A DNA stretch of 32,000 nt from Cupriavidus necator (lineage in GTDB: Bacteria; Pseudomonadota; Gammaproteobacteria; Burkholderiales; Burkholderiaceae), in NCBI RefSeq assembly GCF_016127575.1, contig NZ_CP066018.1, forward strand, positions 420,001 through 452,000. Reading direction: 5' to 3'. Of this stretch, positions 9,674 to 27,121 are shown one piece after another. The position numbers and the translations under genes were made by a program. Positions within the stretch are counted from its first letter, which is position 1. Every line of letters starts with the position of its first letter. The notes beneath the pieces were generated by a model. The model was given only the letters and a program-made list of their open reading frames with translations, did no database searches and had not been told where the DNA came from.

Positions 9674-11287
9674 TCAGTTGACGGCGATGCGGTCGTCGAC
9701 CAGGCGGATCTGGCCGCCAGGCTTGTCTTCCATCACTTTGAGCACGCGGCTGCCTACCTGCAGCGTGACGCCGCCATGGATGCGGCGCGCGGCGTCGATC
9801 ACGGCCTCGGCGGCCGGCTGCATCTGCTGCCCCAGTTCGGTCAAGCGTGCCTCCAGCTCGAACAGGTCACGCGACAGCTTGAACAGTGTCGCGCGCGCCT
9901 TCTCGCGCAGGTCGCCAACGGCCTTCTCGGGATGCTTGGCAAAGAAATCCACCAGCTGTTTGACCTTGTTCTGCTCTGCCAGCATGCCGCGGCGCTCGGC
10001 TTCCAGCGCGGCGCGCTGTGCGTCGGCAAATGGATTCAGGCCGACCTGGATGCTGGTGGCGGTGCCGGCCGGTGCGCCCAGCACCGCGGCGCGCACCGCC
10101 AGCAAGGCACGGCTGCGGCCGCCGCTGATGCTGCCCTGCGCGCCGGTGCCGCCCACCACGATGCGCTCGCCGGCAGCAACATCGCTCTGCCGGATGCCGC
10201 TTTCGACGTTGACCTCGGTGCCGGCCTCGACCACGGCGTTTTCGATAAAGCGCGCCTTCACCGCGCCCTTGCAGCGCACGCTGGCGCGGCTGATGCCGCC
10301 TTCGGTGCGGCCGGTGTCGGCCTTGCCGATGATGCCGCCCTTGACGATGACATTGCCGCCGGCCTCGACATTGGCGGCTTCGATGGTGCCCTCGACCACC
10401 ACGTCGCCGCTGACGTTGACCGACATGCCGGTGCGGATGTCGCCCGACACGCGCAGCGTGCCGTCGAACGCCACGTTGCCTGAGTGCAGGTCGACCGATT
10501 CCACCTGCACCACGGGGCTGACCGAGATGCCGTGCACGCCCACCACCGGCGATCCTGCGATCACCGCGCGCAGCAGCTCCGCATCGTCGGCATCGGCGGC
10601 AGCGCCGGTCAGGCCTTCGGCAAAAGGCGGGTCATCGACCGGATCGGCGGCGACGGGCTTGCCAAATACGTCGACGCCGTCATTGCCGCGCACCGCCGGA
10701 ACGCGCCGCATCAGCGGCGTGCCGGGGCTGACCAGCAGCAGGTTGCCCAGGTCGCGCAGGTCGACCTTGCCGGCCTCGTCGTCAGGCTGCGCCGGCTTGC
10801 GCGGTTCGAGCAGGTTGATGAAGCGCGCCGGCTCACCCTGGCGCGGCGCGACGCCGGCGGCAATGGTGCGCAGCTCGCAACGGCCTTCGGCCAGCGCGGC
10901 GTCCAGTGCCAGGGTCTGGATCGGCGCCACCACGCCGCGCGCCGCCGCGGCGCAGCGGATGTCCTCCGCGCCGACCGGACGGCCGCCTTCGGCTGGCAGC
11001 AGCGTCAGCCGCACGGCCAGGCCGTCGGCGGTGATGTCGAGCTCGAACGCGCCGTCGATCAGCGCACCGATGGTGGCATCGATCTCATGCTCGGCGCGCT
11101 GGCATTGCGCCAGGAACTGCGCCACCGCGCGCGCATCCAGCCGCGCCCCGGCCCAGCCCAGGCTGTCCAGGCATTGGCGCAGGCTGGCCTGGTCCGGCGG
11201 CAGCCTGCCTGGCTGCGGCGTGTAGCGCGCATGCACCTGCTCGCCTGGCTCGGCAAGCTCCAGGCGCAAACCCGACTCATGCGTCAT
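9674..11287 (-). CDS. DUF342 / FapA (flagellar assembly protein A)-like protein
   Basis: 537 aa. The central part has beta-helix-like reiterations (GNVAFDGTLRVSGDI, VNVSGDVVVEGTIEA, VEAGGNVIVKGGIIG, VEAGTEVNVESGI). The tail is a C-terminal coiled coil. AGGGGA SD upstream. Confidence 0.8.
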   Translation of the reverse strand: MTHESGLRLELAEPGEQVHARYTPQPGRLPPDQASLRQCLDSLGWAGARLDARAVAQFLAQCQRAEHEIDATIGALIDGAFELDITADGLAVRLTLLPAEGGRPVGAEDIRCAAAARGVVAPIQTLALDAALAEGRCELRTIAAGVAPRQGEPARFINLLEPRKPAQPDDEAGKVDLRDLGNLLLVSPGTPLMRRVPAVRGNDGVDVFGKPVAADPVDDPPFAEGLTGAAADADDAELLRAVIAGSPVVGVHGISVSPVVQVESVDLHSGNVAFDGTLRVSGDIRTGMSVNVSGDVVVEGTIEAANVEAGGNVIVKGGIIGKADTGRTEGGISRASVRCKGAVKARFIENAVVEAGTEVNVESGIRQSDVAAGERIVVGGTGAQGSISGGRSRALLAVRAAVLGAPAGTATSIQVGLNPFADAQRAALEAERRGMLAEQNKVKQLVDFFAKHPEKAVGDLREKARATLFKLSRDLFELEARLTELGQQMQPAAEAVIDAARRIHGGVTLQVGSRVLKVMEDKPGGQIRLVDDRIAVN

Positions 11288-11461
11288 GCGTCCCCTGAAT
11301 CGTCTTGTGCAGCCGCGCGGCGGGTGCCGGCGCTCCGCTTGTTATCGATCCATAAACCAACGGCAGCAGCGCGGAGAACTTTAGCGCACACCTTGCCGCG
11401 TCGGCCGGGCTGCCATCGCCTTCGTGGAGAAGCCTGGGGGACGATCCGGACGATGTCCGGG

Positions 11462-12268
11462 CTATTTGACCGAGACCACCTCGATGGTGCCGGTCTGGCC
11501 GTTCTGCACGACCTCCTGCTTCATGACCAGGCCCATGTCGGGGCAGTACCAGTCCGTAACGCTGGCGCTCGCCGGCGGCACCGACACGGTGTGGCCCGCC
11601 ACCGTGACCGGCGCCATGGTCGTGCTGCGCTCGTAGCGGACCGGCCAGCAGGATTTCTGGCCGAGGCGGGTGGGGATGGTCGCGCGCTTGCCGACGACCT
11701 TGCCGCCGATGGTGACCTTGGCGGACGGGATCCTGGCCTGGCCGGCGCTCTGGCCGGCGGCGGTCATCTGCAGGTCCATGCGCACCGTCTGCGATTCGCC
11801 CGGCAGCCGCTGTCCTTCCGCTTCAATGACGCCGCCATAGGCCAGGGTCCCGACCGCGCTGCTGTCGAGCATGCCCGATGCCGTGCCGGCGGCGCTCTTG
11901 CCCTCGACCTTGCCCGGCGCGCCGCCGCGCGAGATGGACAGGCGGTCTTCGATCACCGCCATGGTGTAGTCCAGCCGCGTCTCGTTGCCCGAGCCGGCCG
12001 CGGCCACATTCGACACGACGCTGATATTGGCATTGCACTGGCCCTTGCCCGACTTGCGCACGCCGGACACGGACATGGTCGCCGTGCCCGGCGCACCGCC
12101 CTGCATGGTCATGCGGATCTCGCCGCCGTCATGCATCCACGGCGCATCGCAAACGCCGGCCGCTGCGGCTGCCGGCAGCAGCAGCGCAGCGAAGGCCACG
12201 CTTGCGCCAAGCGCCGTGCGGCGGTCCAGGGATTGCCGCGCGCTAGCGCGGTCGGAATTCTTCGGCAT
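11462..12268 (-). CDS. Exported beta-rich hypothetical protein (4 Cys)
   Basis: Track ORF 11462..12283. I prefer the second ATG (12268) because GGAGAGG lies about 6 nt upstream. Signal peptide RRTALGASVAFAALLLPAAAAA. I recognise no family. Confidence 0.6.
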   Translation of the reverse strand: MPKNSDRASARQSLDRRTALGASVAFAALLLPAAAAAGVCDAPWMHDGGEIRMTMQGGAPGTATMSVSGVRKSGKGQCNANISVVSNVAAAGSGNETRLDYTMAVIEDRLSISRGGAPGKVEGKSAAGTASGMLDSSAVGTLAYGGVIEAEGQRLPGESQTVRMDLQMTAAGQSAGQARIPSAKVTIGGKVVGKRATIPTRLGQKSCWPVRYERSTTMAPVTVAGHTVSVPPASASVTDWYCPDMGLVMKQEVVQNGQTGTIEVVSVK

Positions 12269-12309
12269 CTGTCGCCTCTCCATTGGTCAGTTCAGCAAAG
12301 CACCGGCAG

Positions 12310-12651
12310 TCAGTCCTTGCATTGCGGCATGTCGCGGAAGCTGTCGCGCACCGTCGCACAGGACTGCGCCAGGCCATCCTTGTCGGAGACGCCGGCCCAG
12401 CGCGTGCGGATCGATTCCAGCTCGCCGGGCAGCCCGTCGCGCAGGGTCTGGGCGGCCGCGGCCTGCCCCGACTTGTCGAGCTTGGCCGCCATGTTCTCGG
12501 TGCAGGCGCGCTGCGCGGCCTCGGCTTCCTGGCAGGCCTTCGGCAAGGCATCGCTGGCCGCTACGGAATGCCCTTCTTCCTTGCCACAGCCGGCAACGGC
12601 CAGCGCCAGCATGACCGGCAGGCAGGCACGCGGAATCCAGTACGACATCAT
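12310..12651 (-). CDS. Small helical lipoprotein with four conserved-looking Cys
   Basis: Internal start of track ORF 12310..12981 at MMSYWIPRACLPVMLALAVAGCGKEE (lipobox LAVAGC). AGGAG lies 5 nt upstream and the start is 16 nt after the SLT stop. Confidence 0.7.
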   Translation of the reverse strand: MMSYWIPRACLPVMLALAVAGCGKEEGHSVAASDALPKACQEAEAAQRACTENMAAKLDKSGQAAAAQTLRDGLPGELESIRTRWAGVSDKDGLAQSCATVRDSFRDMPQCKD

Positions 12652-12667
12652 GACTTCTCCTCTTTCT

Positions 12668-13411
12668 TCACCGCGGAGGCGGGGGGTTCTGATACGAGAC
12701 AATGGCAAGGCCGCCGTGCTGCGCCGGCGACGCCGGCTGGCGCAAGGGCGCCGCGGCGCTGCCGTCCTGGCCGCCGCGCAAGCGCGCATAGCGGCCCAGC
12801 ACCTGCGGCACGTAGGCCTGGGTCTCGGCAAACGGAGGGATGCGCGACCCGTGGCGCAGCACCGCGCCTTCGCCCGCGTTGTAGGCGGCCAGGGCCAGGC
12901 TGGTGTCGCCGTTGAAGCGCGACAGCAGGCCGCCCAGGTAGGACGCACCGGCCTGCAGGTTCTGGGCCGGGTCATAGGCATCGGTCACGCCCAGCATGCG
13001 AGCCGTGGCCGGCATCAGCTGCGTCAGGCCGATGGCGCCCTTGTCGGAGGTGGCTTGCGGGTTCCAGCCCGACTCCACCTCCACCATGGCCATCAGCAGA
13101 TGCGGGTCCACCGCCGCGGCCTGCGCCGCGCGGTGCGCGAGGGCAACCAGCTCAGAGGGTGGGGACTTGGCGCTGACGACCGCGGCCTTTGCCGCCGCCA
13201 GCGTTGGCAGCCCGATAAACGCCCGCGCTGGCAATGCCGCGGGCGCCGCGGTGGACGCCAGCCGTGCCGGCGCTGCGCTGCGCGACGTGAGGAAGGTCAC
13301 GCCGCTGCCGCGGTCGGCATGCATCACGATCTCGGCGCCGGCCGGCACCGCGCCCGCCAGCAGCATTGCCGCCACCACACCGCGCGCCGGCGCGGCCACG
13401 AGCGCAGGCAT
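12668..13411 (-). CDS. Lytic transglycosylase (SLT domain, GH23)
   Basis: Track ORF 12668..13804 trimmed to ATG 13411, which overlaps the OmpA-like stop as TGATG. Signal peptide. Motifs MVEVESGWNP, GLTQLMPATA and AAYNAGEGAV. Confidence 0.85.
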   Translation of the reverse strand: MPALVAAPARGVVAAMLLAGAVPAGAEIVMHADRGSGVTFLTSRSAAPARLASTAAPAALPARAFIGLPTLAAAKAAVVSAKSPPSELVALAHRAAQAAAVDPHLLMAMVEVESGWNPQATSDKGAIGLTQLMPATARMLGVTDAYDPAQNLQAGASYLGGLLSRFNGDTSLALAAYNAGEGAVLRHGSRIPPFAETQAYVPQVLGRYARLRGGQDGSAAAPLRQPASPAQHGGLAIVSYQNPPPPR

Positions 13412-14790
13412 CACTGCTTGGCCAGCTCCACGCGGCGGTTCTGCGCGCGGCCGAACGGCGTGTCGTTGGACATCAGCGGATGGGTGGCGCCATAGCCCTT
13501 GGCATCGAGCCGGTCGGCGGGCACGCCGGCGCTTTCCAGATAGCGCCTGACGGCGGCGGCGCGGCGCTCGGACAGCGGCTGGTTGCGCGCGTCGCCGCCG
13601 GTGCTGTCGGTATGCCCCTCGACGCGCAGGCGCCAGTCGGGGTGCGCCAGCACCGCCTTGGCGGCACGGTCCAGCAGCGGCCGGGCCGCCGCGCTCAGCA
13701 CGTCGGAATCGGTTTCGAAGTTGACGCCGTAGAGCTGCACGCGGCCCGCGCCTTCCAGCGCCTGGCCGATGGGATCGGGGGCGGCCTCGGCCTTCGGGAA
13801 GCACGGCGGCGCCTTGTCCGCCAGGCGCCAGCCGCCGGCCTCGCGCACGCTGTCGAAGGTGCGGGCATCGCCCTTCACCAGCGCTGCGTAGGCATGGCTG
13901 CCGTCGGGGCTGAAGGCCATGGCGCCCTTCTCAGGCGTGCCCTCGGTGGTGCGCCGGAAGGCCAGCAGGGCACCGTTTTCCAGCCCGCCGGAAATCGTTC
14001 CCAGCACCTGCGTGATCTTCATCTGCTTGTTGCTGTAGTCGCCTTCCACGTAACAGCCTTCCACCGCGGCACCATCCTGGTGCAGCAGCACGTAGCCGGA
14101 CGAACCGAATTCCACCGGAAACTGGTAGATGCCGCCCACCTGGCGCACCTTGTCGGCCGCGGCCTCGGGCTTGCCGTAGGCCATGAACTGCTGCAGGCCG
14201 ATCTGGCCCTCGTCCTGGTCGCCCGGCCAGCGGTTGCCGGTAAGCGTCAGGCGCAGGGCCCCGGCCTTGACGGGCTGGGCCAGCGGCACGCGGGTATCGT
14301 AGCCGTCCTGCCCCGGCAGGTCCGCATCGTAGATCACGGTCCAGGGGCCTTGCGTGCCGCCGGCCGAGGCTTCGACGCGGGCATGGCGCGCATTGCTGCG
14401 CGCCCCGGCATCGGACAGGCCGCGGAAGCGCAGCACGTCGACGGACGAGGCCTGCGCCAGCGCAATCACCAGCTCCTGCCGGCTGCCGTTGCGCATAAAG
14501 CCGGCATGGTCCGGAATCTCATTGAGCAGCGGATACCACGAGCGGTCTTCCTTGTCGCGGTTGACCACGAACGCGCCCGACCACAGCCCGGCAACGTTGG
14601 TTTGCGCGGGCGTTGCCGGCGCCGATGCCACGGGCTGCGCCGATGCCGCTGCAGGCGCGGGCTGCGCATCGCCTTGCGCAGCGGCGCTGTCAGCAGGCTT
14701 CTTCTTGCAGCCCGCCAAGGCCAGCAGGGCCACGACGCCCAGGCCAATGGCGGCCTTGCGGGTCGTCAGTCCAAACGTCATTCCCTTCAA
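13411..14790 (-). CDS. OmpA-family lipoprotein (C-terminal peptidoglycan-binding OmpA_C domain, about 330-aa unknown N-domain)
   Basis: Lipobox LLALAGC. The C-terminus (NFETDSDVL...VEGHTDSTGGDARNQPLSERRAAAVRRYL...NRRVEL) is a classic OmpA_C domain. The start is either TTG 14790 or ATG 14781. Confidence 0.85.
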   Translation of the reverse strand: MKGMTFGLTTRKAAIGLGVVALLALAGCKKKPADSAAAQGDAQPAPAAASAQPVASAPATPAQTNVAGLWSGAFVVNRDKEDRSWYPLLNEIPDHAGFMRNGSRQELVIALAQASSVDVLRFRGLSDAGARSNARHARVEASAGGTQGPWTVIYDADLPGQDGYDTRVPLAQPVKAGALRLTLTGNRWPGDQDEGQIGLQQFMAYGKPEAAADKVRQVGGIYQFPVEFGSSGYVLLHQDGAAVEGCYVEGDYSNKQMKITQVLGTISGGLENGALLAFRRTTEGTPEKGAMAFSPDGSHAYAALVKGDARTFDSVREAGGWRLADKAPPCFPKAEAAPDPIGQALEGAGRVQLYGVNFETDSDVLSAAARPLLDRAAKAVLAHPDWRLRVEGHTDSTGGDARNQPLSERRAAAVRRYLESAGVPADRLDAKGYGATHPLMSNDTPFGRAQNRRVELAKQ

Positions 14791-14839
14791 GGTACTTCCC
14801 CTTCTTCTTTTTGTGATGCCGGCCTGTCCGGTACGCGCC

Positions 14840-15334
14840 TCAATGCGGGGCGCGCATCAGCATGTCGATCTTCTGCAGCCGCACGCGGACTTCGCGCTCC
14901 AGCGGCGCCAGTGTTTCCGGGCCGGCTCCGGCCTTGCTGGCGCGCGCGTAGTTCGCGATCGCCTCGTTCATGCCGCGCTGCTCTTCGGCCAGCGCACGCT
15001 TGACCAGCTCGCGCTCATCGCTGGCCGCCACGCTCGGAATCGCCGCCTGCGCGGCCCCCGCGACGGCGGCCTGCGCCAGGTCGGGCGCGTTGCCGCGTGC
15101 GGACGGTGCCGCTGCCTGGGGCGCGGAAGCCGCCGGAGCCCGCGCTGCCGACGCCGGCACGGCGCCGCTCACCGCCGGCGGCGCACGCCGCGTGGTGATG
15201 ATCTGCACGCCTTCGGAGCGAGAAACCTCCATCGCCGCCAGCGCCGGTTGCGGCACGAACCCGAGGTTACACAACAACAGCAACGCCAAACAACCCCGCT
15301 TCGGCAATTTTGTCGACCTTGTCGATTCTGGCAT
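14840..15334 (-). CDS. Exported Ala/Pro-rich protein with C-terminal helical domain
   Basis: 164 aa. Hydrophobic N-terminus CLALLLLCNLGFVPQPALAA, a low-complexity A/P linker and a helical tail ERELVKRALAEEQRGMNEAIANY. There is no strong SD and the start is uncertain. Confidence 0.55.
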   Translation of the reverse strand: MPESTRSTKLPKRGCLALLLLCNLGFVPQPALAAMEVSRSEGVQIITTRRAPPAVSGAVPASAARAPAASAPQAAAPSARGNAPDLAQAAVAGAAQAAIPSVAASDERELVKRALAEEQRGMNEAIANYARASKAGAGPETLAPLEREVRVRLQKIDMLMRAPH

Positions 15335-15379
15335 CGGTGTCTTCGGGCTTATCCCGGCAAATTTTCACAAATACTTACA

Positions 15380-15410
15380 AAAACGGCGACTGCGGATGCG
15401 TCAGTTGCCG
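15380..15410 (-). terminator. Weak intrinsic terminator overlapping the tadE-like stop codon
   Basis: Minus strand CGGCAAC-13 nt-GTCGCCG (one mismatch) followed by TTTTTG. It sits at the edge of the only AT-rich spacer in the gene array. Confidence 0.4.
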
Positions 15411-16111
15411 CGATACGGCGATTGCATCCGCACGATCGCCTCGGACTCGAGCGGGATGCGCCATTCCGACGCCAGCGTGGCCCGTCCGGTGCAGAAATTG
15501 GGCGTGGTCGGGACCTCCATGCCGCGGTACGAACCGGTCGCAACAAAATTCCGGATGCCGTTGACCAGCGAGTAGATGGTGCGGTCGGCAAACGGCACGA
15601 ACATTTCGTAGCAGTACGTGACCCGGATCTTCAGCAGGTTGGCGTCCTGGATATTGACGCCAGAGGACGGCCCCGCGCTGGTGGCGCGGTACATCAGGCT
15701 GTCGTTGGGGATCTCCCGCGTGGTCTTGCCGGCGTAGTAGCCGCTTCGCCCGAAATCCTGCAGCGCCGCCGGCGTCGGGTTCAGCACGTCGATCCTGGCC
15801 TGGGTGCGGGCCTCGAACTGGGCCTTGGCATAGCCGGTGGCATGCGCGGTACGGTCGGCGGAGCGCACGAACAGCGGCGTCAGCCCCAGCGCCAGCCCCT
15901 TGCGCATGCTGGCCAGCCGGCCGTGGTCGACGGCGCCTTCGCGCGCGGCCTGCAAGGCGGCGTGGTCTAGCGTGGCCTTGGCCTGGTACAGCAGCCCGAA
16001 CTGGATCACGCCCAGGCACAGCAGCAGCAGCGCCGGCGCGATGATCAGGAATTCCACCGCGGACTGTCCCCGTGCCCCGCGCCGCGCCGCGTGCTTTTGC
16101 TGGTGCGTCAT
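15401..16111 (-). CDS. tadE: TadE-like pseudopilin
   Basis: The N-terminus RGARG/QSAVEFLIIAPALLLLCLGVIQFG matches the G/XXXXE[FY] class-III signal and the TadE N-terminal motif. ATGA overlap with the upstream DUF192 gene. Confidence 0.8.
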   Translation of the reverse strand: MTHQQKHAARRGARGQSAVEFLIIAPALLLLCLGVIQFGLLYQAKATLDHAALQAAREGAVDHGRLASMRKGLALGLTPLFVRSADRTAHATGYAKAQFEARTQARIDVLNPTPAALQDFGRSGYYAGKTTREIPNDSLMYRATSAGPSSGVNIQDANLLKIRVTYCYEMFVPFADRTIYSLVNGIRNFVATGSYRGMEVPTTPNFCTGRATLASEWRIPLESEAIVRMQSPYRGN

Positions 16112-16473
16112 GGCCCCTCCTCCCGCAGTTCCAGGTTCTGGCCCGGCGCAATCCCCAATGCCGCCGCGCGCCCCGCGCCGAGCTCAAGCGTCTGGCGCGC
16201 GCGCCAGTGGGCACGCACGCGCAGGCGTCCCACGCACGGGTGCACCGCCAGCACGCGCTGCCGCTTGTCGAGAAACACCACGTCGATCGCCATGCGCATG
16301 CCAAAGGTGTGGACTGCGCCGCAGGGGGACAGCAGCAAGGCTTCGTCCGGTGCCATCGAATCGCGGCTGAGCAGCCCCGTCATGCGTTCGCGCGCAGTGG
16401 CCGCCACCGACACGCGCACGCCGGTGTCGAGCGTGCTGTGGCCGGCCCGCAGGTAGAGGCGCGCCTGCCTCAC
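16108..16473 (-). CDS. DUF192 domain protein
   Basis: The core LLLSPCGAVHTFGMRMAIDVVFLD resembles the DUF192 (COG1430) signature. The GTG start overlaps the tadC stop (GTGA) and the stop overlaps the tadE start (ATGA). No signal peptide is evident. Confidence 0.7.
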   Translation of the reverse strand: MRQARLYLRAGHSTLDTGVRVSVAATARERMTGLLSRDSMAPDEALLLSPCGAVHTFGMRMAIDVVFLDKRQRVLAVHPCVGRLRVRAHWRARQTLELGAGRAAALGIAPGQNLELREEGP

Positions 16474-17351
16474 AGCAGCCCTTCCTGCATAAACTTCATC
16501 ACGATCGGGAAGCCAAGCACGATAAAGGTGACCGGGAAGATAAACACCACCAGCGGAAAGATCAGCTTGACCGGCGCTTCCATGGCCTGCTTCTCCGCGC
16601 GCTGGAAGCGCTCGGTGCGCCGCTGCTCCGACTGGAAGCGCAGCGTGGCGGCCAGCCCCGAGCCCATGCGCTCCGCCTGGATCACGGCACCGACGAAATT
16701 GGTGACCTCCTTCACGCGCAGGCGGTCATCCATGCGGCGCAGCGCATCGGCGCGGCTCAGGCCCGACTTCAGGTCGCGCAGCACGTGCTCGAACTCGCGC
16801 CGCAGCGGGCCCTCAGGCCCCTTCTCCACCGCCTGCAGCAGGGCGCCGTTGATGTTCAGGCCGGCCTCTACGCTCAGTGTCAGGAAATCCAGAAACACCG
16901 GCAGGTGGCGCGTGACCTGCAGCAGGTTGCGCTTGCGCACGTCGCGTAGCCAGATGCGCGGATAGAAGAAGCCCAGCGCGCTGGCGGCAAGCAGCAGCAG
17001 CGGCGAGAACACGCCCAGCCCCAGCATGGCTATGCCCGCCAGCAGGCAGAACGCCAGCGCCGAAACGATCGACAGCGACAGGAACTGGCGCGCCGTCATC
17101 AGGAACGACATGCCCGTCAGGCGCAGTTGCTCGTCCACCGCGGCGCGCAGCGACTTCGGCGTGATCCAGACGAGATGGTGGTCGAAGAAGCGCACCACCG
17201 GCCAGACCGCGCGCAGCGACGGCGGCAACGGGTCGAGGTAGTCGCGCGCCTCGTCGGGAACGGCCACGGTGAGGCGGCGCATGGCCATGGTGGTGGCGGC
17301 GAGCACGCCGACCAGGCCGGCGGCAAGGGCGAAGGCAACAACAAGCATCAT
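16470..17351 (-). CDS. tadC: Tad pilus platform protein TadC (T2SS F family)
   Basis: 293 aa polytopic membrane protein with a T2SSF-like cytoplasmic domain (LPVFLDFLTLSVEAGLNINGAL). It lies directly after tadB. Confidence 0.88.
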   Translation of the reverse strand: MMLVVAFALAAGLVGVLAATTMAMRRLTVAVPDEARDYLDPLPPSLRAVWPVVRFFDHHLVWITPKSLRAAVDEQLRLTGMSFLMTARQFLSLSIVSALAFCLLAGIAMLGLGVFSPLLLLAASALGFFYPRIWLRDVRKRNLLQVTRHLPVFLDFLTLSVEAGLNINGALLQAVEKGPEGPLRREFEHVLRDLKSGLSRADALRRMDDRLRVKEVTNFVGAVIQAERMGSGLAATLRFQSEQRRTERFQRAEKQAMEAPVKLIFPLVVFIFPVTFIVLGFPIVMKFMQEGLL

Positions 17352-17363
17352 GGTCGGCCCCGG

Positions 17364-18212
17364 TCAGACATCGATATGGGTGATCTTGCTGATCGCCTTG
17401 TAGCCAAGCAGCTCCATCACCGCGATCACGGACAGCGTGCCCCAGCCGATCGGCGAACTGAACAGCGGTGCCATCGCCACCGGCTCCATGTGGTTCAGCA
17501 CCACGATCAGGAACAGCGGCAAGCCCGTCATCACCAGGCCCTGCATCTTGCCCTGCGCGGTCAGCGCGCGGATCTTGCCTTCCATCTGATGCTTCTCGCG
17601 CAGCGTGCGCGCCACCGACTCCAGCGTCTCGGCCAGGTTGCCGCCCACCTCGCGCGAGATCGTGATGGCCGCGGTCACCATCAGGAAGTCGGGCACTGGA
17701 ATGCGTTTTTCCATATTGCGCAGCGCGTCCATCAGGTCCACGCCAAGCCGGACTTCGCGCATCAGCAGGTCGAACTCCTGCGAGATCGGCGGGCGCGACT
17801 CCGCCACCACGCTTTCCAGCGCCATCGGGAAGCTGGCGCCGGCGCGCAGCGCGCTCGACATCATCAGCAGCGCGTCGGGCATCTGGTCTTCGATGGCCAT
17901 CAGGCGCTTGCGCTGCATCTTCTTCACCAGCGCGCGCGGCAGCAGCAGGCTCACCGGAATGCTGAGCATCGCGAAGAACACGTTCTGCGATACCAGCCAG
18001 GTCAGCAGCGGCAGCGCGAACACCGCCACCACCGAGATGCCGGCCACCTGCCGCATATTGATGAAGATAAAGAGATCGGCCAGCGAGGCCTCGACCTCGG
18101 TCGCCAGCGTCTGCGTATGCCGCACGAACCAGCGCTTGCCCTGCGACAGCACGGCCCACGCAATCAGCACGGTCATCAGGAAGGCGCCGCACAGCACCAG
18201 GGCAAGGTTCAT
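17364..18212 (-). CDS. tadB: Tad pilus platform protein TadB (T2SS F family)
   Basis: 282 aa with a T2SSF-like domain (MPDALLMMSSALRAGASFPMAL). A perfect AAGGAGG SD overlaps the tadA stop. Confidence 0.88.
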   Translation of the reverse strand: MNLALVLCGAFLMTVLIAWAVLSQGKRWFVRHTQTLATEVEASLADLFIFINMRQVAGISVVAVFALPLLTWLVSQNVFFAMLSIPVSLLLPRALVKKMQRKRLMAIEDQMPDALLMMSSALRAGASFPMALESVVAESRPPISQEFDLLMREVRLGVDLMDALRNMEKRIPVPDFLMVTAAITISREVGGNLAETLESVARTLREKHQMEGKIRALTAQGKMQGLVMTGLPLFLIVVLNHMEPVAMAPLFSSPIGWGTLSVIAVMELLGYKAISKITHIDV

Positions 18213-18221
18213 ATTGCCTCC

Positions 18222-20081
18222 TTACTCGTCGCGGGCGGTGAAGATGCCCGTATTGACCTGGATGCCGCGCCGGATCAGGTCCTGGTAGAAATCCGGGATA
18301 TACGAGGTCGCGACATAGCGCCCCTTGACCTTGCCGTCGGCACCGTAGCCTTCCTCGCGGAACATGAACACGTCCTGCAGCTGCACCACGCCCGTTTCCA
18401 TGCCGCTGACCTCGGTGATATGCGTCACGCGCCGCGAACCGCAGGAGAAGCGCGTCTGCTGCACGATCACGTCGACCGCCGAGCAGACCTGTTCGCGAAT
18501 GGCCTGCACCGGCAGGTCCAGCCCCGCCATCAGCGTCATCACCTCAAGACGCGACAGGCAGTCCCGCGGCGAGTTGGCGTGGGCCGTGGTCAGCGAGCCG
18601 TCATGGCCGGTATTCATGGCCTGCAGCATGTCCAGCGCTTCCCCGCCCCGGCATTCGCCGACGACGATGCGGTCCGGGCGCATGCGCAGGCAGTTCTTGA
18701 CCAGGTCGCGGATCGTCACCGCGCCCTTGCCTTCCATATTGGGCGGCCGCGCCTCCAGCGACACCAGGTTGGGCTGCGACAGCTGCAGCTCGGCCGCATC
18801 CTCGACCGTGACGATGCGTTCGTCATCCGGGATGAAGCTGGACAGCACGTTCAGCAGCGTGGTCTTGCCTGAGCCCGTGCCGCCGGAGATCACGATATTG
18901 GCGCGCCGCTCCACGGCGGTGCGCAGGAACTCCAGCATCTCGGGCGACAGCGAGCCGAAGCCGACCAGGTCTTCGCCCCTGAGCTTCTTGCGCGAGAACT
19001 TCCGGATGGTGATGTTCGGCCCCTTGAGGGCGAGCGGCGGGATCACCGCGTTCACGCGCGAGCCATCGGGCAGGCGCGCATCGACCATCGGCGAGCTTTC
19101 ATCGATGCGCCGTCCCAGCGGCGCGACGATGCGCTCGATGGCGCCCAACACGGCGCGGTCGTCGGTAAAGATCACCGGCGAACGCGTCAGCCTGCCGGCG
19201 CGCTCGACAAAGATCTCGTCATGGCAGTTGACCATGATTTCCGAGACCGCGTCATCGTCCAGCAGCTCTTCGAGCGGACCCAGCCCGATCACTTCGTCAA
19301 AGACGCTCTGCTTGAGCGCGTCCAGCGGGATCTCCTGGCTGCGGAACACGCTCTCCTTGAGGATGTCGTCGAGCAGCGAGCCGACCAGTTCGCATAGCTC
19401 GTCCTCGGCCATGCGCGCGACGTTGACGCGGCGCAGGTCGAGCGCAGCGATCAGGCGCTGGTGCGCCTGCTTGCGCAGTTCCACGCCGCGCGGCGAGTTG
19501 ATGGGTGCGCGCAAGGCCTCGTCGAGCGGCGCCACCGGCGCAGGTTTGGCGGCCACCGGCGCTGGCTTCGGCGCAGGTGCCGGCGGCCTGGGTGCGGGCA
19601 CCGCTTCGCGCGGCACCGGCACGCTTGCCTGGGGCGATGGCGACAGGGTCACCGCCTCCCGCGGCGGCGACGGAGGCGGCACAGGCATGGGCACCGGCAC
19701 CACCGGTTGAGGCGCCGCGGCATCCTGTGGTGGTTGGGCGTGGTGCTGCTGCGGCGATGGCTGCGCCGCCACGCCCGCTCCCGCTCGCCCCGGCTCGGCC
19801 ACGACGGACAGCACGAAGCCGCCGATCTCGATCTGGTCGGCCGCCGCCAGCGGGCCATAGCGCGTGACCGGGTCGCCATTGATCAGCGTCGAGGCAATGC
19901 CGCCCTGATCCTCGATATACCAGCCGCCGTTGTGTCCTTCGATGCGGGCGTGGACCTTGCCGATCAGCAGGCCCTTGAGGACGATGTCGCAGCCGGGATC
20001 CTTGCCGATGGTACAGCCCGGCCCCTTCACATGGATCACCTCGGCGCTGCCATTGCGCTGCTGCAGGCGGATATTGAGCAT
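18222..20081 (-). CDS. tadA: TadA/CpaF secretion ATPase with N-terminal FHA domain and Pro-rich linker
   Basis: Residues about 20-93 (GPGCTIGKDPGCDIVL...HARIEGHNGGWYIEDQGGIASTLINGDPV...IEIGGFVL) are FHA-like. Residues about 96-190 are a P/A-rich linker. Walker A ISGGTGSGKTT at 18861-18890, Walker B RIVVGECRG, and the His box GHDGSLTTAHAN. Confidence 0.92.
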   Translation of the reverse strand: MLNIRLQQRNGSAEVIHVKGPGCTIGKDPGCDIVLKGLLIGKVHARIEGHNGGWYIEDQGGIASTLINGDPVTRYGPLAAADQIEIGGFVLSVVAEPGRAGAGVAAQPSPQQHHAQPPQDAAAPQPVVPVPMPVPPPSPPREAVTLSPSPQASVPVPREAVPAPRPPAPAPKPAPVAAKPAPVAPLDEALRAPINSPRGVELRKQAHQRLIAALDLRRVNVARMAEDELCELVGSLLDDILKESVFRSQEIPLDALKQSVFDEVIGLGPLEELLDDDAVSEIMVNCHDEIFVERAGRLTRSPVIFTDDRAVLGAIERIVAPLGRRIDESSPMVDARLPDGSRVNAVIPPLALKGPNITIRKFSRKKLRGEDLVGFGSLSPEMLEFLRTAVERRANIVISGGTGSGKTTLLNVLSSFIPDDERIVTVEDAAELQLSQPNLVSLEARPPNMEGKGAVTIRDLVKNCLRMRPDRIVVGECRGGEALDMLQAMNTGHDGSLTTAHANSPRDCLSRLEVMTLMAGLDLPVQAIREQVCSAVDVIVQQTRFSCGSRRVTHITEVSGMETGVVQLQDVFMFREEGYGADGKVKGRYVATSYIPDFYQDLIRRGIQVNTGIFTARDE

Positions 20082-20088
20082 GGCCGGA

Positions 20089-21630
20089 TCAGCCTCCGTT
20101 CATCGGATCGACGCCGGGCGGGGGCAGCGGCGGCCGCTTCTGCTCCATCACTTCCTGCTCACGCACGGCATTCGCAGCGGGCAGCGGGCTTGGCTCGCCG
20201 AAGCGGTGGCGGTAGTTGGCATCGACATCCGCGCCACGCTGCAGCAGCGCGGCGTTCTCCGGGCTGGCCGGGTCATAGACGACCGGGGTGACAAAGATCA
20301 CCAGGTCGCTCTTGTTGTTGCGGAATTCGTCGGAACGGAACAATCGCCCGAGGATAGGGATGCTGCCCAGCAGCGGCACCTTGTCGACGGCCTTGGATGC
20401 GTCGGCATTGACCAGCCCCGAGATCGCCAGCGTTTCGCCCGCGCGGATCGAGGTCTCGGAGGTGGTGCGGCGCGTCAGGAAGGCCGGGAAGCCGCCGAAC
20501 GATACCGACGGGTCGATCTGGCTGATCTCGGTTTCCAGCGTGGTCGAGATGACATTGTCGACGTTCACCGCCGGGCGGATGTTGAGCTTGATGCCGTACG
20601 GCTTGTAGTCGACGTCGGTGGTGCCGAACGCGCCGGCCTTGGGAATCGGCACTTCGCCGCCGGCCAGGAAGGTGGCCAGCCCGCCGCTCTTGCTGTTGAG
20701 CTCCGGCGCGGCGAGCACGTAGGCATCGCCATCGGAAATGGCCAGGTTGATGCGCGAGAAGATGGTCGTGGCAATGCCGAGATAGAAGCCGCTGGCGGCG
20801 CCGGCCACCTGGCTCGGGGTATCGGTGAAGGTGGCCGCATCGGTGGACGGCAGCGTGCGATAGCGCCCGGTGTGCACCGGATTGCCCGCGAACGCGATCT
20901 GCGGGCCGTTGAAGCTCTGCTGCCAGGCAATGCCAAGCTTCTCCATGCCGCGCCGGGTGATCTCCATGATGTGCACCTTGAAGTGCACGGTCTTCTTCAG
21001 CGCATCGCCCTCGTCGGCGCGCACCAGGTTGACCACGCTGTCCAGGCCCGAGGTGGCGGTCTTGATCAGCGGCACCATCTGCGGATCGACGATGCCCGAC
21101 AGCACCACGCTGGGACCGACCACCTCGATCTTCAGGCCGCGCACGCTGCCCAGCGACGCCCGCAGGCGCTGGGCCACGTCGGCGGTATCGGCCGGCGCCA
21201 CGCGCAGCTTGCCCTGCAGCGCCACGCCGCGCTCGTTCCAGACGATCAGGCTGGTGGTGCCGATCTCCTCTGCCAGCAGCAGCAGGCGGCCGTCGACCAC
21301 GGTGCTGCTGACCAGCGCGCCATTGCCGATGGCCACGCGCCTGATGGTGCCCGGCACCTCGAGCGCGCGCACCTCGCCCTTGAACAGCTCGATCGCACCA
21401 AAGCGCGCCGGCAGCTCGTACGACGGCGGCTGCGCGCCTGTGCGGGCCGCGGTGGTCACGGGCTCGGCGGCCCAGGCTCCCGAGGCCAACGCTGCTGCCG
21501 CCAGTGCTGCCATACCCCCGCGCACCGCATGGCGCGCCCCCTTACCCGTTTTCCCGTCCGGTGCTCCGTGTACCGTGACCGCCTGCAGGCGCCCGGCGAT
21601 GCCGCCGCGCTGCGCGAAAGACCCATCCAT
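20089..21630 (-). CDS. rcpA: Tad secretin RcpA/CpaC
   Basis: Pilus-formation N-domain (IRRVAIGNGALVSSTVVDGRLLLLAEEIGTTSLIVWN). C-terminal secretin core (VPLLGSIPILGRLFRSDEFRNNKSDLVIFVTP). The start is uncertain: ATG 21630, or about 21513-21525 just before the signal peptide MAALAAAALASGAWA. Confidence 0.88.
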   Translation of the reverse strand: MDGSFAQRGGIAGRLQAVTVHGAPDGKTGKGARHAVRGGMAALAAAALASGAWAAEPVTTAARTGAQPPSYELPARFGAIELFKGEVRALEVPGTIRRVAIGNGALVSSTVVDGRLLLLAEEIGTTSLIVWNERGVALQGKLRVAPADTADVAQRLRASLGSVRGLKIEVVGPSVVLSGIVDPQMVPLIKTATSGLDSVVNLVRADEGDALKKTVHFKVHIMEITRRGMEKLGIAWQQSFNGPQIAFAGNPVHTGRYRTLPSTDAATFTDTPSQVAGAASGFYLGIATTIFSRINLAISDGDAYVLAAPELNSKSGGLATFLAGGEVPIPKAGAFGTTDVDYKPYGIKLNIRPAVNVDNVISTTLETEISQIDPSVSFGGFPAFLTRRTTSETSIRAGETLAISGLVNADASKAVDKVPLLGSIPILGRLFRSDEFRNNKSDLVIFVTPVVYDPASPENAALLQRGADVDANYRHRFGEPSPLPAANAVREQEVMEQKRPPLPPPGVDPMNGG

Positions 21631-21684
21631 TGCGTGTTCCGTCAGTTGGTGTTCTGGATAATCCGATGTCGTGCACCGCCGCGC

Positions 21685-22716
21685 TCAACGCGAGGCCGGC
21701 CGGCCCGCCATGGCGTTGGCGGCGTTGGCAACGGCGCCCTGCTGGGCCTGGGCGATGCCGCCCGCGGAACCGCCCATGGACCCGCCATTGGCCAGCGCCG
21801 AAGAAATGGCGTTGCCGATGTCCTGCGCGGTAGGCAGCTTGGAGATCATGTTGGCGCCCGCGGAACGGCCACCGACGATGTATTCGATGGCCGCTTCGTC
21901 GCCACCGGCGAAGAGCGCGTGCTCGCTGACCGCGATCTGCGGGGTCGCGGTCTTGTCGGCCGCATTGCGCAGCACCGCGCGCAGGCTGCCGACCTTCTGC
22001 GCCAGCGCCAGCCGCGCCGCCTGTTCGGGCGACACCATCAGCGTGAGGCTGTCGTAATCCGGGTTGGTGTCCACGCCCTCCGCGCCTTCCGCGGCCTGCG
22101 CCGCCATGGCTTCGCCATAGTCGCGCGGGCGCACGTCCTGGCCGGTGGCCAGCACCAGCATGTCCGACATCAGCAGCCGCGCGGTCTGCTTGTCGGTGCC
22201 TGCCGCAGTGGGCGAGGTGGAGCTGATCAGGAACAGGTCGACATGGTTGCCAGGCTTGAGCATCTTGGCCGTCGAGTTGACCATGTCGACCTCGATGGTG
22301 AAGGCGCGCTTGCCGGGCTTGAGCAGGTCGGAGAAATCGCGCGACTGCAGCGCTTCAACGTCGGCACGCCGCACCGGCTGGCCCTGCCGCACCTGGCGCA
22401 CCAGGCGCAGGTTCGCCACCTTGTCGAAGCTGCTCGCCAGGATCATGTCTTCGTAGACCAGGTCGGCCGGAATCTCCCGTGCCGCGAAGCCATTGCCGTC
22501 GATCACCGTGCCCGGCGCGGCGTTGCGCACCGGCACCATGACAGCCACGCGGCGGCCCTCGTTCAGCTGCGCGGCCAGCTGCTCTTTCAGTGCCGCTTCG
22601 CGCCCGCTCAGGAAGTGGTAGATCCACAGTGTCAGCAGGCCGGCGACCAGCACGGCGATGACGAGGACGACCCAGGGATTCCCGATGATTGAATGAATCT
22701 TGATTTTCTTCAGCAT
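21685..22716 (-). CDS. cpaB: Flp pilus assembly protein CpaB/RcpC with Gly/Ala-rich C-terminal tail
   Basis: N-terminal TM segment (WVVLVIAVLVAGLLTLWIY), then a SAF-like domain (VAVMVPVRNAAPGTVI), then an RcpC-like domain. The last 70 aa or so are low complexity. Confidence 0.85.
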   Translation of the reverse strand: MLKKIKIHSIIGNPWVVLVIAVLVAGLLTLWIYHFLSGREAALKEQLAAQLNEGRRVAVMVPVRNAAPGTVIDGNGFAAREIPADLVYEDMILASSFDKVANLRLVRQVRQGQPVRRADVEALQSRDFSDLLKPGKRAFTIEVDMVNSTAKMLKPGNHVDLFLISSTSPTAAGTDKQTARLLMSDMLVLATGQDVRPRDYGEAMAAQAAEGAEGVDTNPDYDSLTLMVSPEQAARLALAQKVGSLRAVLRNAADKTATPQIAVSEHALFAGGDEAAIEYIVGGRSAGANMISKLPTAQDIGNAISSALANGGSMGGSAGGIAQAQQGAVANAANAMAGRPASR

Positions 22717-22758
22717 GAATGTGCTTGCAGTAGCCAGACGCCGCCCGCTGGCGGTGCG

Positions 22759-22932
22759 TCAGGGAAGTGACAGGGAAAAGCTGTATGCCTGAAAGAAGGA
22801 CCTGAACGCCGCGGCCAGCATGCTGATGACCGAGTTGTCGCCGCCGGCGACCAGCACGGCAACGACCAGCAGCGTGATGACGATGTATTCGAACGCGGCC
22901 TGCCCGCGCTGGCGCCTGCTACGGATTGCCAT
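22759..22932 (-). CDS. 57-aa Flp-like mini-prepilin, not in the ORF track
   Basis: The ATG at 22932 lies 4 nt after the upstream TAG, with GGAG 7 nt upstream. Translation: MAIRSRRQRG/QAAFEYIVITLLVVAVLVAGGDNSVISMLAAAFRSFFQAYSFSLSLP. This is an exact G/XXXXEY Flp processing motif followed by a TM helix. The nucleotides were cross-checked against the overlapping track ORF 22710..23441. Confidence 0.6.
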   Translation of the reverse strand: MAIRSRRQRGQAAFEYIVITLLVVAVLVAGGDNSVISMLAAAFRSFFQAYSFSLSLP

Positions 22933-22936
22933 CGCG

Positions 22937-23662
22937 CTACTCCGGCCGCGCCACGGTGATCACCGCGTCGGTCTGGCCGGCGCGGTCGACAAAGGTGGCA
23001 TCCATGCGTTCCTGCTGCCGCTGCATGGCCAGCGTGAGGCCCTCGATGCGGCCCGAACCGTCGGCCACGGGCGCGGGCATCTGCACCACCGAACTCCAGC
23101 CCTGCGCCGCCAGCCGCTCGGCGGCGCGCTGCCGCGCCGCCTGCGCGTTGCCGGGCAGCCGGACCACCAGGGTGCGCCCGCGCTGGCCGCGGTCCGTGCT
23201 CTGGACATCCGACAGGACCTTGGCGCCGGGCGGCAGGCCCAGGTCGCCCAGCCCGGTGCCGGACGCCACCGGCGCCAGCTTGCTGACCGAGAAGATGCCC
23301 GCCACATGCCCGCCCGGCGCGGGCCTGGGCTCCAGCGACAGCACATAGTGGCAAAGCCCGTCGATCGCGCTCAGCACGTACTGGCCGCCGGCCCGCTGCC
23401 CGCGCGCCGGCACGCCTTCGCGCGTCCAGTACTGGCGCCACGCGTCCGAGACCGCTTCGGCGGTGCCGGCGAACTCCATCGTCAGCACCCGCGTGGGCAG
23501 GCCGTTGACCACCATGTCGGTGCCGACCGCATGCGCCCTGGCAGGCGCAACCGGCTGCCGCGTGCAGTCCGTCGCGGTCGCTGCCGCCGCGGACCAGGCG
23601 AGCGCGGCCGGCAGCAGCGCGGCCAGGCAGCGCATCAGCACGCCATGCATGCAGGCTTTCAT
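22937..23662 (-). CDS. Exported hypothetical protein embedded in the Tad locus
   Basis: 241 aa. Signal peptide MRCLAALLPAALAWSAAAA. The start is 1 nt after the upstream stop (TGAgATG). I recognise no family motif. Confidence 0.65.
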   Translation of the reverse strand: MKACMHGVLMRCLAALLPAALAWSAAAATATDCTRQPVAPARAHAVGTDMVVNGLPTRVLTMEFAGTAEAVSDAWRQYWTREGVPARGQRAGGQYVLSAIDGLCHYVLSLEPRPAPGGHVAGIFSVSKLAPVASGTGLGDLGLPPGAKVLSDVQSTDRGQRGRTLVVRLPGNAQAARQRAAERLAAQGWSSVVQMPAPVADGSGRIEGLTLAMQRQQERMDATFVDRAGQTDAVITVARPE

Positions 23663-23663
23663 C

Positions 23664-24473
23664 TCAGCGGCTCCCCAGGCGGTCGGCGGGGACCACGTCG
23701 GGCTGGATGCGGCCCAGGTCCAGTTTCAGGATTTCCGGCCCGAAGGCGGCCAGCCCGACGGTCAGCGCGGTGTCGATCACGCCGCCCTTGCTGGTGGGCA
23801 CCGCTTCCTTGATCACGGCGAGCGTGCCGTTGCGCCCCTCGGGCGTCCAGGCGTTGGTCAGCAGCACGGTGTGGTCCTGCATGCCGAAGCCGGTCCAGCC
23901 CGGCCACAGCGCGCGCAGGGCCGCGTTGTCGCCGGCGACGGACAACCCCACCTCGGCCCGGTAGAGGTTGCGCGTGGCCAGGTCGAAGCCGGCACTGACC
24001 GCGTTGGCCGCACCCATGGCAGCCGTGATCGGCTTGAGCGTGGCTGCCGGGGTTTCGTCGACGCCGCTGCCCAGGGTCACGTCGGCATAGTTGCGCAGCA
24101 TGTCGACGCCGGCATGGTCCTTCCACATCGGCGCCATGCCGCCGGGCAGGCGGCGCGCGGTGCGGTCGCTCGACGCCAGCGCGGCCTGGTCGTGCCCCAG
24201 CACGCGCTGCACGAATTCGCTGCGGATCTCTTCGTCGCCCTTGCTGGCGAAGCTGCCGTGCGACGCGCGCCAGCCCGGGTCGACGGTCCAGACCGTGCGC
24301 TCCCAGCCGGCATAGCGCGAGGCCATCAGCGCCTTGTTGCGCACGTCGCTGAACTTGCCCAGCATCGCCATGCCGAGAAACAGCACGCCGAGCACCGTCA
24401 TCGCGGCGATCACGAATTCGATCATTGCCTGTCCGGCTGCCCGGTTCGGCCTGGCTGGCCTGCGCATGCGCAT
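23664..24473 (-). CDS. TadE/TadF-like pseudopilin
   Basis: Track ORF 23664..24512 trimmed to ATG 24473 (GGGAG SD, 10 nt after the tadG-like stop). The N-terminus RAAG/QAMIEFVIAAMTVLGVLFLG fits G/XXXXEF. Confidence 0.8.
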   Translation of the reverse strand: MRMRRPARPNRAAGQAMIEFVIAAMTVLGVLFLGMAMLGKFSDVRNKALMASRYAGWERTVWTVDPGWRASHGSFASKGDEEIRSEFVQRVLGHDQAALASSDRTARRLPGGMAPMWKDHAGVDMLRNYADVTLGSGVDETPAATLKPITAAMGAANAVSAGFDLATRNLYRAEVGLSVAGDNAALRALWPGWTGFGMQDHTVLLTNAWTPEGRNGTLAVIKEAVPTSKGGVIDTALTVGLAAFGPEILKLDLGRIQPDVVPADRLGSR

Positions 24474-24483
24474 GTCCGCTCCC

Positions 24484-26013: not shown

Positions 26014-26065
26014 GTTCCGGGATCGCGAGTGCTGGAGCGCAGCGAGCAACTGGCGGCGATGCCGC

Positions 26066-26359
26066 TTAGTTGTTCTTGCCCGTGTCGTTGCCGACGTTGT
26101 AGTTGTTCAGCCCCTTGCCCTGGTTGGCCTTGGAGCTGGCATCGTCCGCGGCGCTGCCGGCTTGCTTGATGGCCTGCTTGGATGCCGAGTTCTTGCCGGC
26201 CATTTCCTGGGCGAGGCCCGCGGTCTGGTTGCGGATGGTCTGGCCGAACATGGCATAGACGCCGATCGCGGACACGGCGATCAGTGCCACGATGATGATG
26301 TATTCGGTCATGCCCTGACCTTGCTGACGCGCCTTGCGGCGCAGATTTGCGAATGTCAT
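26066..26359 (-). CDS. flp: Flp-family type IVb pilin with extended hydrophilic C-terminus
   Basis: Track ORF 26066..26401 trimmed to ATG 26359 (GGAAGGAG SD 5 nt upstream). MTFANLRRKARQQG/QGMTEYIIIVALIAVSAIGVYAMFG is a G/XXXXEY motif plus a TM helix. 97 aa. Confidence 0.85.
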   Translation of the reverse strand: MTFANLRRKARQQGQGMTEYIIIVALIAVSAIGVYAMFGQTIRNQTAGLAQEMAGKNSASKQAIKQAGSAADDASSKANQGKGLNNYNVGNDTGKNN

Positions 26360-27087: not shown

Positions 27088-27098
27088 AGGGCACTGTT

Positions 27099-27121
27099 CC
27101 GGCGGCGCGCCGCGCCGCCGG
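27099..27121 (+). other. GC-only palindrome just after the ArsR-family stop (possible terminator stem)
   Basis: CCGGCGGCGCG-c-CGCGCCGCCGG. No T-run follows. Confidence 0.35.

Follow-up and report, generated by a model that had tools for sequence, protein, structure and literature searches.

How Tad/Flp machines cross the peptidoglycan is an acknowledged gap, and a locus of Cupriavidus necator raises the question of whether a machine of this type may carry its own tools for the purpose. The locus lies in a stretch of 32,000 nucleotides (NCBI RefSeq assembly GCF_016127575.1, contig NZ_CP066018.1, positions 420,001 to 452,000 of the forward strand), which is the window analysed here and is numbered from its first letter. 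A Tad-like operon occupies the minus strand of the window from ~26.4 kb to ~11.5 kb, and toward its 3' end a gene for a lipoprotein with an OmpA_C domain is followed directly by a gene for a secreted SLT-type lytic transglycosylase (hereafter the SLT). Judged by sequence comparison, the SLT and the OmpA lipoprotein are probably accessory genes peculiar to one lineage and added to the 3' end of a Tad-like (type IVc filament) operon of non-canonical type, where they would serve as a peptidoglycan gate and anchor. A preliminary description of this DNA had pointed out that wall-cutting enzymes stand outside the canonical Tad gene set. This is borne out by a 2025 structural paper, according to which the Tad pilus has no reported peptidoglycan hydrolase or lytic transglycosylase, the borrowing of enzymes from other processes being offered there as speculation (PMC12307814). 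Our own literature search found no report of a transglycosylase or an OmpA protein in a tad locus.

The SLT (247 aa, with an N-terminal signal peptide) matches the Pfam SLT family (PF01464) over residues 92-188 with E = 1.8e-29 and 102.1 bits against a cut-off of 21.3, and it carries an EVES motif at residues 111-114, in which the predicted catalytic Glu113 is encoded by the codon at 13073-13075. By domain score and motifs, it can be assigned to the family-1 (GH23, SLT-domain) lytic transglycosylases, in agreement with its first characterization as a secreted GH23 enzyme with an EVES motif. The elements E113-S114, GLTQLMP, and AYNAGE are conserved in all 13 aligned tad-linked SLTs. Sequence matches in the PDB include Slt70, MltF, MltC, and MltE/EmtA, and the NCBIfam match to IagB is marginal (E = 0.0013). 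The window SLT shares 91% identity with a protein of C. necator N-1; the best matches from beyond the Cupriavidus clade are ~150-430 aa long, mostly ~200, share 42-69% identity over the catalytic domain, and in many cases carry DUF4124. The genomic contexts of close relatives outside the clade were machine-linked in each of the four cases sampled: the Pandoraea relative is the last gene of a type III secretion system (T3SS) cluster, with a 4-nt overlap, the Pseudogulbenkiania relative stands directly after gspA-gspB, and the relatives in Methylobacillus and Thauera adjoin filament clusters resembling MSHA or the type II secretion system (T2SS).

With TTG as its start codon, the lipoprotein has 459 aa; three codons further on lies an in-frame ATG, an alternative that is the start called in a database protein of 98% identity. 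Its signal peptide ends in the lipobox LALAGC with Cys28, and Gly-Cys is retained in the homologue consensus, which identifies it as a lipoprotein; by the E. coli rule, the Lys at position +2 would sort it to the outer membrane. The Pfam OmpA family (PF00691) is matched over residues 358-452 with E = 2.3e-22 and 79.6 bits against a cut-off of 27.2, and the earlier call of a 459-aa lipoprotein with a classic OmpA_C domain stands. Invariant across 56 homologues are G392-H-T-D395, N403, L406-S407, and R410-A411, of which D395 and R410 presumably form the conserved Asp/Arg peptidoglycan-binding pair of OmpA/Pal structures. Foldseek matched this domain to OprF, Pal, YfiB, TagL, chain N of the Legionella Dot type IV secretion system (T4SS) core complex (6x62), and PorE, and NCBIfam gave domain-level matches to YiaD, Pal, YfiB, TssL, and PorE. 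As a whole, the protein fell below the NCBIfam cut-offs for the named equivalogs Pal, YiaD, YfiB, TssL, PorE, and MotB (for example, 117.7 vs 175 for YiaD and 73 vs 125 for Pal).

The N-terminal ~330 aa of the lipoprotein, which the preliminary description had considered to be of unknown type, resolve into recognizable folds. The AlphaFold2 (AF2) model of the whole protein has a predicted local distance difference test score (pLDDT) of 84 and a predicted TM-score (pTM) of 0.80 and consists of four parts: a disordered lipid-anchored segment, a CBM32-like beta-sandwich, an 8-stranded calycin-like barrel, and the OmpA_C domain (Table 1). For the sandwich, the Foldseek matches were the CBM32 domain of EndoD (2xqx; TMt 0.71-0.73) and galactose oxidase, in its N-terminal domain; at the sequence level, the CBM32 assignment appears as weak precomputed PF00754 and PF07738 matches in OmpA homologues, with none in Pfam for the window protein itself. 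When the whole model was aligned to galactose oxidase or the flagellar LPHT ring, the root-mean-square deviation was ~18-20 A, and these hits were taken as single-domain matches only. For the barrel, Foldseek returned weak avidin/lipocalin-like matches (E at least 2.7e-3, TM ~0.5), too weak for homology to calycins to be claimed. Cys246 and Cys330 are invariant across the 56 homologues, and an FSPDG motif is conserved in the barrel region. The family is rare: among 1.84 billion cluster representatives, a profile of the N-terminal region recovered 136 at E <= 1e-3.

The two genes are physically joined. The junction reads AAG CAG TGA TG CCT, with the TGA of the OmpA gene and the ATG of the SLT gene sharing their A at 13411 on the minus strand, which confirms the TGATG overlap noticed earlier; with equal likelihood, the SLT could start at a GTG, which would make the overlap 4 nt. 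Such an overlap (4 nt or 1 nt) is present in 11 of 12 loci, the window included, and the exception has a 7-nt gap (L015). The pair had been placed 600 nt after the last tad gene; it does lie on the same strand as tadE, which ends at 15401, but the interval is occupied by a conserved 164-aa open reading frame (ORF). An ORF fills this position in L001, L003, L004, L007, and L018, with detectable sequence similarity in L001, L007, and L018, and orthologues of the 113-aa lipoprotein encoded after the SLT occur in these last three loci as well. Across tadE, the 164-aa ORF, ompA, slt, the small lipoprotein gene, and the DUF3108-like gene, the successive gaps measure 66, 49, -1 (or -4), 16, and 26 nt. 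No Pfam/NCBIfam family was matched, even at E <= 1, by the 164-aa protein, the 113-aa lipoprotein, or two proteins encoded upstream in the tad locus; a DUF4124-like N-terminus was suspected for the 164-aa protein and was not supported by the family search.

Comparison with other genomes ties this block to the tad genes. The order tadE, small ORF, OmpA, SLT recurs in 11 further loci (L001, L003, L004, L007, L009-L013, L015, and L018) from Cupriavidus, Paraburkholderia, Burkholderia, Pararobbsia, Xylophilus, and metagenomes, although the flanks differ (ABC transporter, sensor kinases, peptidase M20, or FapA); the OmpA identity across these loci falls to ~43-44%. The scan of the genome collection, made with a single peptide pattern, returned nine loci. 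In Burkholderia sp. JKS000303 (L003), the only locus with an A24 prepilin peptidase, the gene for this enzyme comes after the SLT gene and two further small genes, which places the pair inside the tad locus of this strain. In a sister clade (L020, L023, and L024; TadC 64% identical), the start of an orthologous-looking SLT overlaps the tadE stop itself, as TGATG or ATGA, and in L023 a gene for a TPR protein comes after the SLT. A different OmpA_C protein is encoded directly after tadE in two distant branches (L036/L037 and L095), and the copy of the system on a Moraxella bovis plasmid likewise has a downstream SLT. The SLT of L054 was not counted as tad-linked; it is encoded 3 kb away from tadE and carries a long extension at its C-terminus, in contrast to the small tad-linked SLTs.

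The pair has also decayed where the machine was lost. Cupriavidus lacunae S23 (L008, 9680-11181, compared with window 12255-27533) has collinear flanks of 91-95% identity, interrupted by four gaps. The gap at 15294-27533 removes the tad genes, that at 14827-15248 most of the 164-aa ORF, and that at 12255-13408 the SLT and 113-aa lipoprotein genes, while the gap at 14578-14707 falls within the OmpA gene, where 127 nt net are missing and the signal peptide has been shifted out of frame. Neither the DUF3108-like gene nor FapA is damaged, and because it is retained here, FapA is probably unrelated to the tad genes. The excised tad island extends from the tadE stop to upstream of flp; the tadE/164-aa intergenic region was kept, followed by smaller separate deletions. 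C. lacunae is a clean example of stepwise operon decay, and the pattern fits relaxed selection on the 164-aa ORF, OmpA, SLT, and lipoprotein genes once the machine had gone. Gene order, the overlap with tadE, and the co-loss together indicate that the SLT is encoded within the gene cluster of the machine and appears to be inherited with it.

Several observations weigh against a tie between the pair and the machine. Because the OmpA protein served as bait in retrieving the genomic loci, this part of the count is biased, and the co-loss is seen in a single lineage with a draft assembly. A TadC-based metagenome scan recovered 80 loci of the same subtype, which is recognized by an FHA-bearing TadA and a DUF192 protein, and ~29 distinct TadC-recovered loci with at least 2.5 kb of sequence after tadE were used to count the pair. 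The full block of small ORF, OmpA, SLT, and lipoprotein was present in one of these ~29 other FHA-TadA/DUF192 loci (L018), and among the remainder an adjacent SLT was found only in L020, L023, and L024; these four have the highest TadC identity among the scanned loci (64-72%). Most loci of the subtype do not have the pair, and therefore the machine works without it in most lineages. OmpA homologues at 31-34% identity stood alone, without tad or SLT, in five of five cases examined; L014 has OmpA and DUF3108-like genes between SSB and Fic genes, again without tad or SLT; and L010 and L011 carry a second OmpA plus DUF3108-like pair without an SLT. A scan of the coding strand over 11000-16500 for promoters and terminators returned neither; the missing terminator-like site counts in favour of a shared operon, although the scan as a whole speaks neither for nor against it. 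The proposed co-occurrence of the OmpA-SLT pair with FHA-TadA loci thus holds for the 11 further syntenic loci and fails in ~28 of the ~29 loci recovered with TadC, and the claim that the pair belongs with the Tad machine is upheld by order, overlap, and co-loss in one lineage and is not general across the subtype.

Stand-alone envelope lipoproteins are evidently the source from which the OmpA family was co-opted. DUF3108-like proteins adjoin CBM32-barrel-OmpA lipoproteins with or without tad (L010, 12024-12839 and 15482-16333; L014, 11396-12070), which suggests that the two formed an older two-gene envelope module. One could go further and regard the whole pair as an unrelated envelope-maintenance module beside tad, in which the lipoprotein and the DUF3108-like protein form a Pal/YiaD-like tether and a housekeeping SLT lies between them by chance. 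The distant homologues that stand alone, the OmpA plus DUF3108-like pairs that occur free of tad and SLT (in L014 and, as an additional copy, in L010 and L011), the absence of both genes from most FHA-TadA/DUF192 loci, and the survival of the DUF3108-like gene after tad loss in C. lacunae would all agree with such a module. We nevertheless consider it unlikely, since the block travels with tad across genera despite different flanks, a prepilin peptidase lies beyond it in L003, the sister-clade SLT overlaps tadE directly, the OmpA, SLT, 164-aa, and small lipoprotein genes decay where tad is lost, and the sampled SLT relatives are machine-linked in four of four cases.

The composition of the operon bears on a second alternative. 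By Pfam, the core Tad/Flp set is present in the window, with a Flp prepilin, TadA/CpaF, TadB, TadC, the RcpA/CpaC secretin, RcpC/CpaB, and TadE/G-like pseudopilins, as in flp-rcp-tad of Aggregatibacter, cpa of Caulobacter, and the locus of Pseudomonas aeruginosa. Unlike these canonical loci, it has an FHA-TadA, a DUF192 protein, the SLT, and the OmpA lipoprotein, and it lacks TadZ/CpaE, TadD, RcpB, and a prepilin peptidase (TadV/CpaA), for which no Pfam/NCBIfam match was found among the scanned ORFs of the window. With TadD and RcpB missing, the lipoprotein might act mainly as a secretin partner, that is, a pilotin or anchor in their place, and the SLT as a separate helper, the two forming no binder-plus-cutter complex. 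The SLT does occur without this OmpA protein in L020, L023, and L024, with a TPR protein after it in L023, and L036 and L095 have other OmpA_C proteins but no SLT. Such a division of labour seems improbable to us, however, as most loci of the subtype are without TadD and also without this lipoprotein, and the OmpA/SLT overlap retained in 11 of 12 loci suggests matched production of the two proteins.

An FHA region is not peculiar to the window, in which TadA has an FHA domain and a linker of ~250 aa: it was found in all 44 related loci with a complete TadA, and DUF192 is present in nearly all loci recovered with TadC. A tblastn search of FHA-TadA against PLSDB plasmids gave no full-length relative, the sole close match being in Moraxella bovis; matches on Ralstonia and rhizobial plasmids were set aside as canonical CpaF without the FHA part. 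On the M. bovis plasmid NZ_CP087831.1 (L016/L017, ~68.3-98 kb), the same FHA-TadA/DUF192 subtype is present, and directly behind it come genes for three RHS-repeat proteins, then small ORFs and an SLT 38% identical to that of the window, which hints at a link between the FHA-TadA machine type and polymorphic toxins.

An ATPase with an FHA domain, KilF, is also part of Kil, the Tad-like killing apparatus of Myxococcus xanthus, which makes holes in the peptidoglycan of prey and is without TadD and RcpB (PMC8460266). Compared by published description, the window locus resembles Kil in its FHA-fused ATPase and in the missing TadD and RcpB; unlike Kil, which has no TadG and a short secretin without an N-terminal domain, it has a TadG-like PF13400 protein and a PF13629 secretin domain. 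The idea that the locus encodes a Kil-like contact-dependent weapon or secretion device, whose SLT attacks the wall of a target cell rather than that of the producer, perhaps aided by the carbohydrate-binding lipoprotein, would accord with the KilF-like ATPase, the RHS-repeat proteins and SLT behind the M. bovis copy, and the failure to find TadZ and TadD in the window, yet it is very unlikely, because the SLT is small, has a Sec signal, and has relatives in T3SS, T2SS, and filament clusters, where such enzymes cut the wall of the producer, because the TadG-like gene and the RcpA-type secretin N-domain are present, because the window has no toxin or immunity genes, and because OmpA_C lipoproteins reside in the envelope.

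FHA-TadA/DUF192 loci are widespread in metagenomes, and their 3' genes vary (RHS with SLT, cNMP-binding, OmpA_C, or SLT). The commonest family after tadE elsewhere is cNMP_binding, which makes up 13 of the 105 ORFs counted there. Proteins of this family, ~150 aa long and encoded singly or as two or three in tandem, lie 0-1.5 kb after tadE in L027, L035, L047, L064, L065, and others, and ShlB/POTRA transporters follow tadE in three loci of the subtype. It is conceivable, and in our estimate quite doubtful, that these loci, which lack TadZ and TadD, constitute a separate class of type IV filament machine with variable 3' cargo or helper genes, a Kil-type contact-dependent device in which the SLT and the CBM32-OmpA protein would breach the wall of the producer, the target, or both.

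We return to the reading of the pair as a peptidoglycan gate and anchor of a Tad-like machine. One readthrough transcript would cover tadE, the 164-aa ORF, ompA, slt, the small lipoprotein gene, and the DUF3108-like gene, and the OmpA protein and the SLT would be translationally coupled. The SLT would be exported by Sec to the periplasm and cut glycan strands locally through Glu113, which would let the RcpC/secretin conduit cross the sacculus. The lipoprotein, lipid-anchored in the outer membrane, would reach the wall by means of its flexible linker of ~35 residues, with OmpA_C binding peptidoglycan and the CBM32-like domain possibly a glycan; this binding might fix the machine to the wall, confine the cutter, or both. 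The sequences themselves establish which genes and domains are present, the motifs for catalysis and binding, the conservation of order and overlap, and the decay together with tad; co-transcription, periplasmic location, lytic activity, peptidoglycan binding, contact between OmpA and SLT or between SLT and machine, and a need for either protein in assembly are inferences.

Both roles have counterparts in other envelope machines. Dedicated transglycosylases reportedly include VirB1 in T4SS, IagB, IpgF, and EtgA in T3SS, FlgJ and SltF in flagella, and BfpH and R64 PilT in type IVb pili. The window SLT resembles these specialised enzymes in that it is small, predicted to be Sec-exported, of the GH23/SLT type, and encoded inside the operon of a machine; it differs in that it stands at a Tad-like (type IVc) locus, is coupled to a peptidoglycan-binding lipoprotein, and is found in one lineage only. 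For the SLT, the best-supported role would be that of a cutter dedicated to its machine, such as T3SS, T4SS, flagella, and type IVb pili are known to have. For the lipoprotein, the best-supported role would likewise be that of a wall anchor of the kind known for the type VI secretion system (T6SS), Dot/Icm, and the type IX secretion system (T9SS). It shares the OmpA_C fold and the conserved binding residues with TagL/TssL of T6SS, the OmpA-like subunit of Dot/Icm, PorE of T9SS, and MotB/MotY, and it is a predicted outer-membrane lipoprotein like Pal, YiaD, and PorE, whereas its N-terminus, with a CBM32-like sandwich and a small barrel, is unlike that of the OmpA_C wall anchors and of Pal/YiaD.

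A further parallel is GspA/GspB (ExeA/ExeB) of T2SS, which binds peptidoglycan and is required for the secretin to assemble. Here too, a wall-binder is associated with a secretin machine, and an SLT relative comes after gspA-gspB in Pseudogulbenkiania; unlike the OmpA lipoprotein, GspA is an inner-membrane AAA protein with PG_binding_1, and there is no homology between them. In Pseudogulbenkiania sp. MAI-1 (L100, 5443-8663), gspA (AAA and PG_binding_1), gspB, and a DUF4124-SLT gene stand in a row; here a T2SS secretin is accompanied by a binder and a cutter, much as in the OmpA-SLT pair.

The features of the region are collected in Table 1. The G+C content of the window is ~68%, and Cupriavidus sp. 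UYPR2.512 (L007) shares 95% DNA identity with the window. The order of the upstream tad genes, from Flp to a second, Flp-like ORF, is the same in L001, L003, L004, and L018. The Flp-like ORF sits between the gene for a secreted protein and RcpC, and ORFs of matching size are in the same place in L001, L003, and L004. Upstream of flp, a stretch of low G+C (26414-27505; 0.545 vs ~0.68) may be the regulatory region of the tad operon; it includes a 131-aa ORF (26592-26987, +) without a Pfam match.

Table 1. Features of the Tad-like operon and the adjoining genes in the window, with the parts of the OmpA_C lipoprotein. Positions are those of the window.
Feature	Residues	Positions	Strand	Basis and remarks
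Flp pilin		26066-26413	-	true start probably later
TadG-like protein		24484-26049	-	PF13400
Pseudopilin-like protein		23664-24512	-	upstream tad genes
Secreted protein without known family		22937-23662	-	upstream tad genes
Second small Flp-like ORF, 57 aa, unannotated, MAIRSRRQRGQAAFEYIVIT...		22759-22932	-	
RcpC/CpaB		21685-22716	-	Pfam PF16976/PF13629/PF00263 set, covering RcpC and secretin
RcpA/CpaC-type secretin		20089-21630	-	Pfam; carries PF13629 N-terminal domain
TadA/CpaF-type ATPase with N-terminal FHA domain		18222-20081	-	PF00437, E = 3.9e-65; PF00498, E = 5.8e-12
TadB platform protein		17364-18212	-	PF00482
TadC platform protein		16470-17351	-	PF00482
DUF192 protein, hallmark of the Tad-like subtype		16108-16473	-	PF02643, E = 3.3e-19
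TadE-like pseudopilin, last recognisable tad gene		15401-16111	-	PF07811, E = 4.7e-15
Conserved secreted protein, 164 aa		14840-15334	-	ORF and signal peptide; between tadE and OmpA gene
OmpA_C lipoprotein, 459 aa		13411-14790	-	PF00691
Disordered lipid-anchored segment	1-62			AF2; Ala/Pro-rich linker at 29-62
CBM32/discoidin-like beta-sandwich	63-208	14167-14604	-	AF2, pLDDT mostly >90; Foldseek
8-stranded up-and-down beta-barrel, calycin-like	220-324	13819-14133	-	AF2 of domain alone, pLDDT 88
OmpA_C peptidoglycan-binding domain	340-459	13414-13773	-	PF00691; Foldseek
Secreted SLT/GH23 lytic transglycosylase, 247 aa		12668-13411	-	PF01464
Lipoprotein, 113 aa		12310-12651	-	lipobox LAVAGC; AGGAG ribosome-binding site
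DUF3108-like exported protein, 273 aa		11462-12283	-	
FapA-family (flagellar assembly protein A-like) gene		9674-11287	-	just downstream of module

A dedicated cutter or wall anchor is a kind of component already known; what is new is its attachment to a Tad-like locus. The scope of this finding is a non-canonical Tad-like subtype, within which the pair is confined to one lineage, and all statements that reach past synteny and gene content are inferences. The locus is a natural test case in culturable strains, namely C. necator N-1, Cupriavidus sp. UYPR2.512, and several Paraburkholderia. A tad-type operon with its own putative cutter, coupled to a wall-binder, would offer a handle on whether wall remodelling limits the assembly of Tad-type machines.

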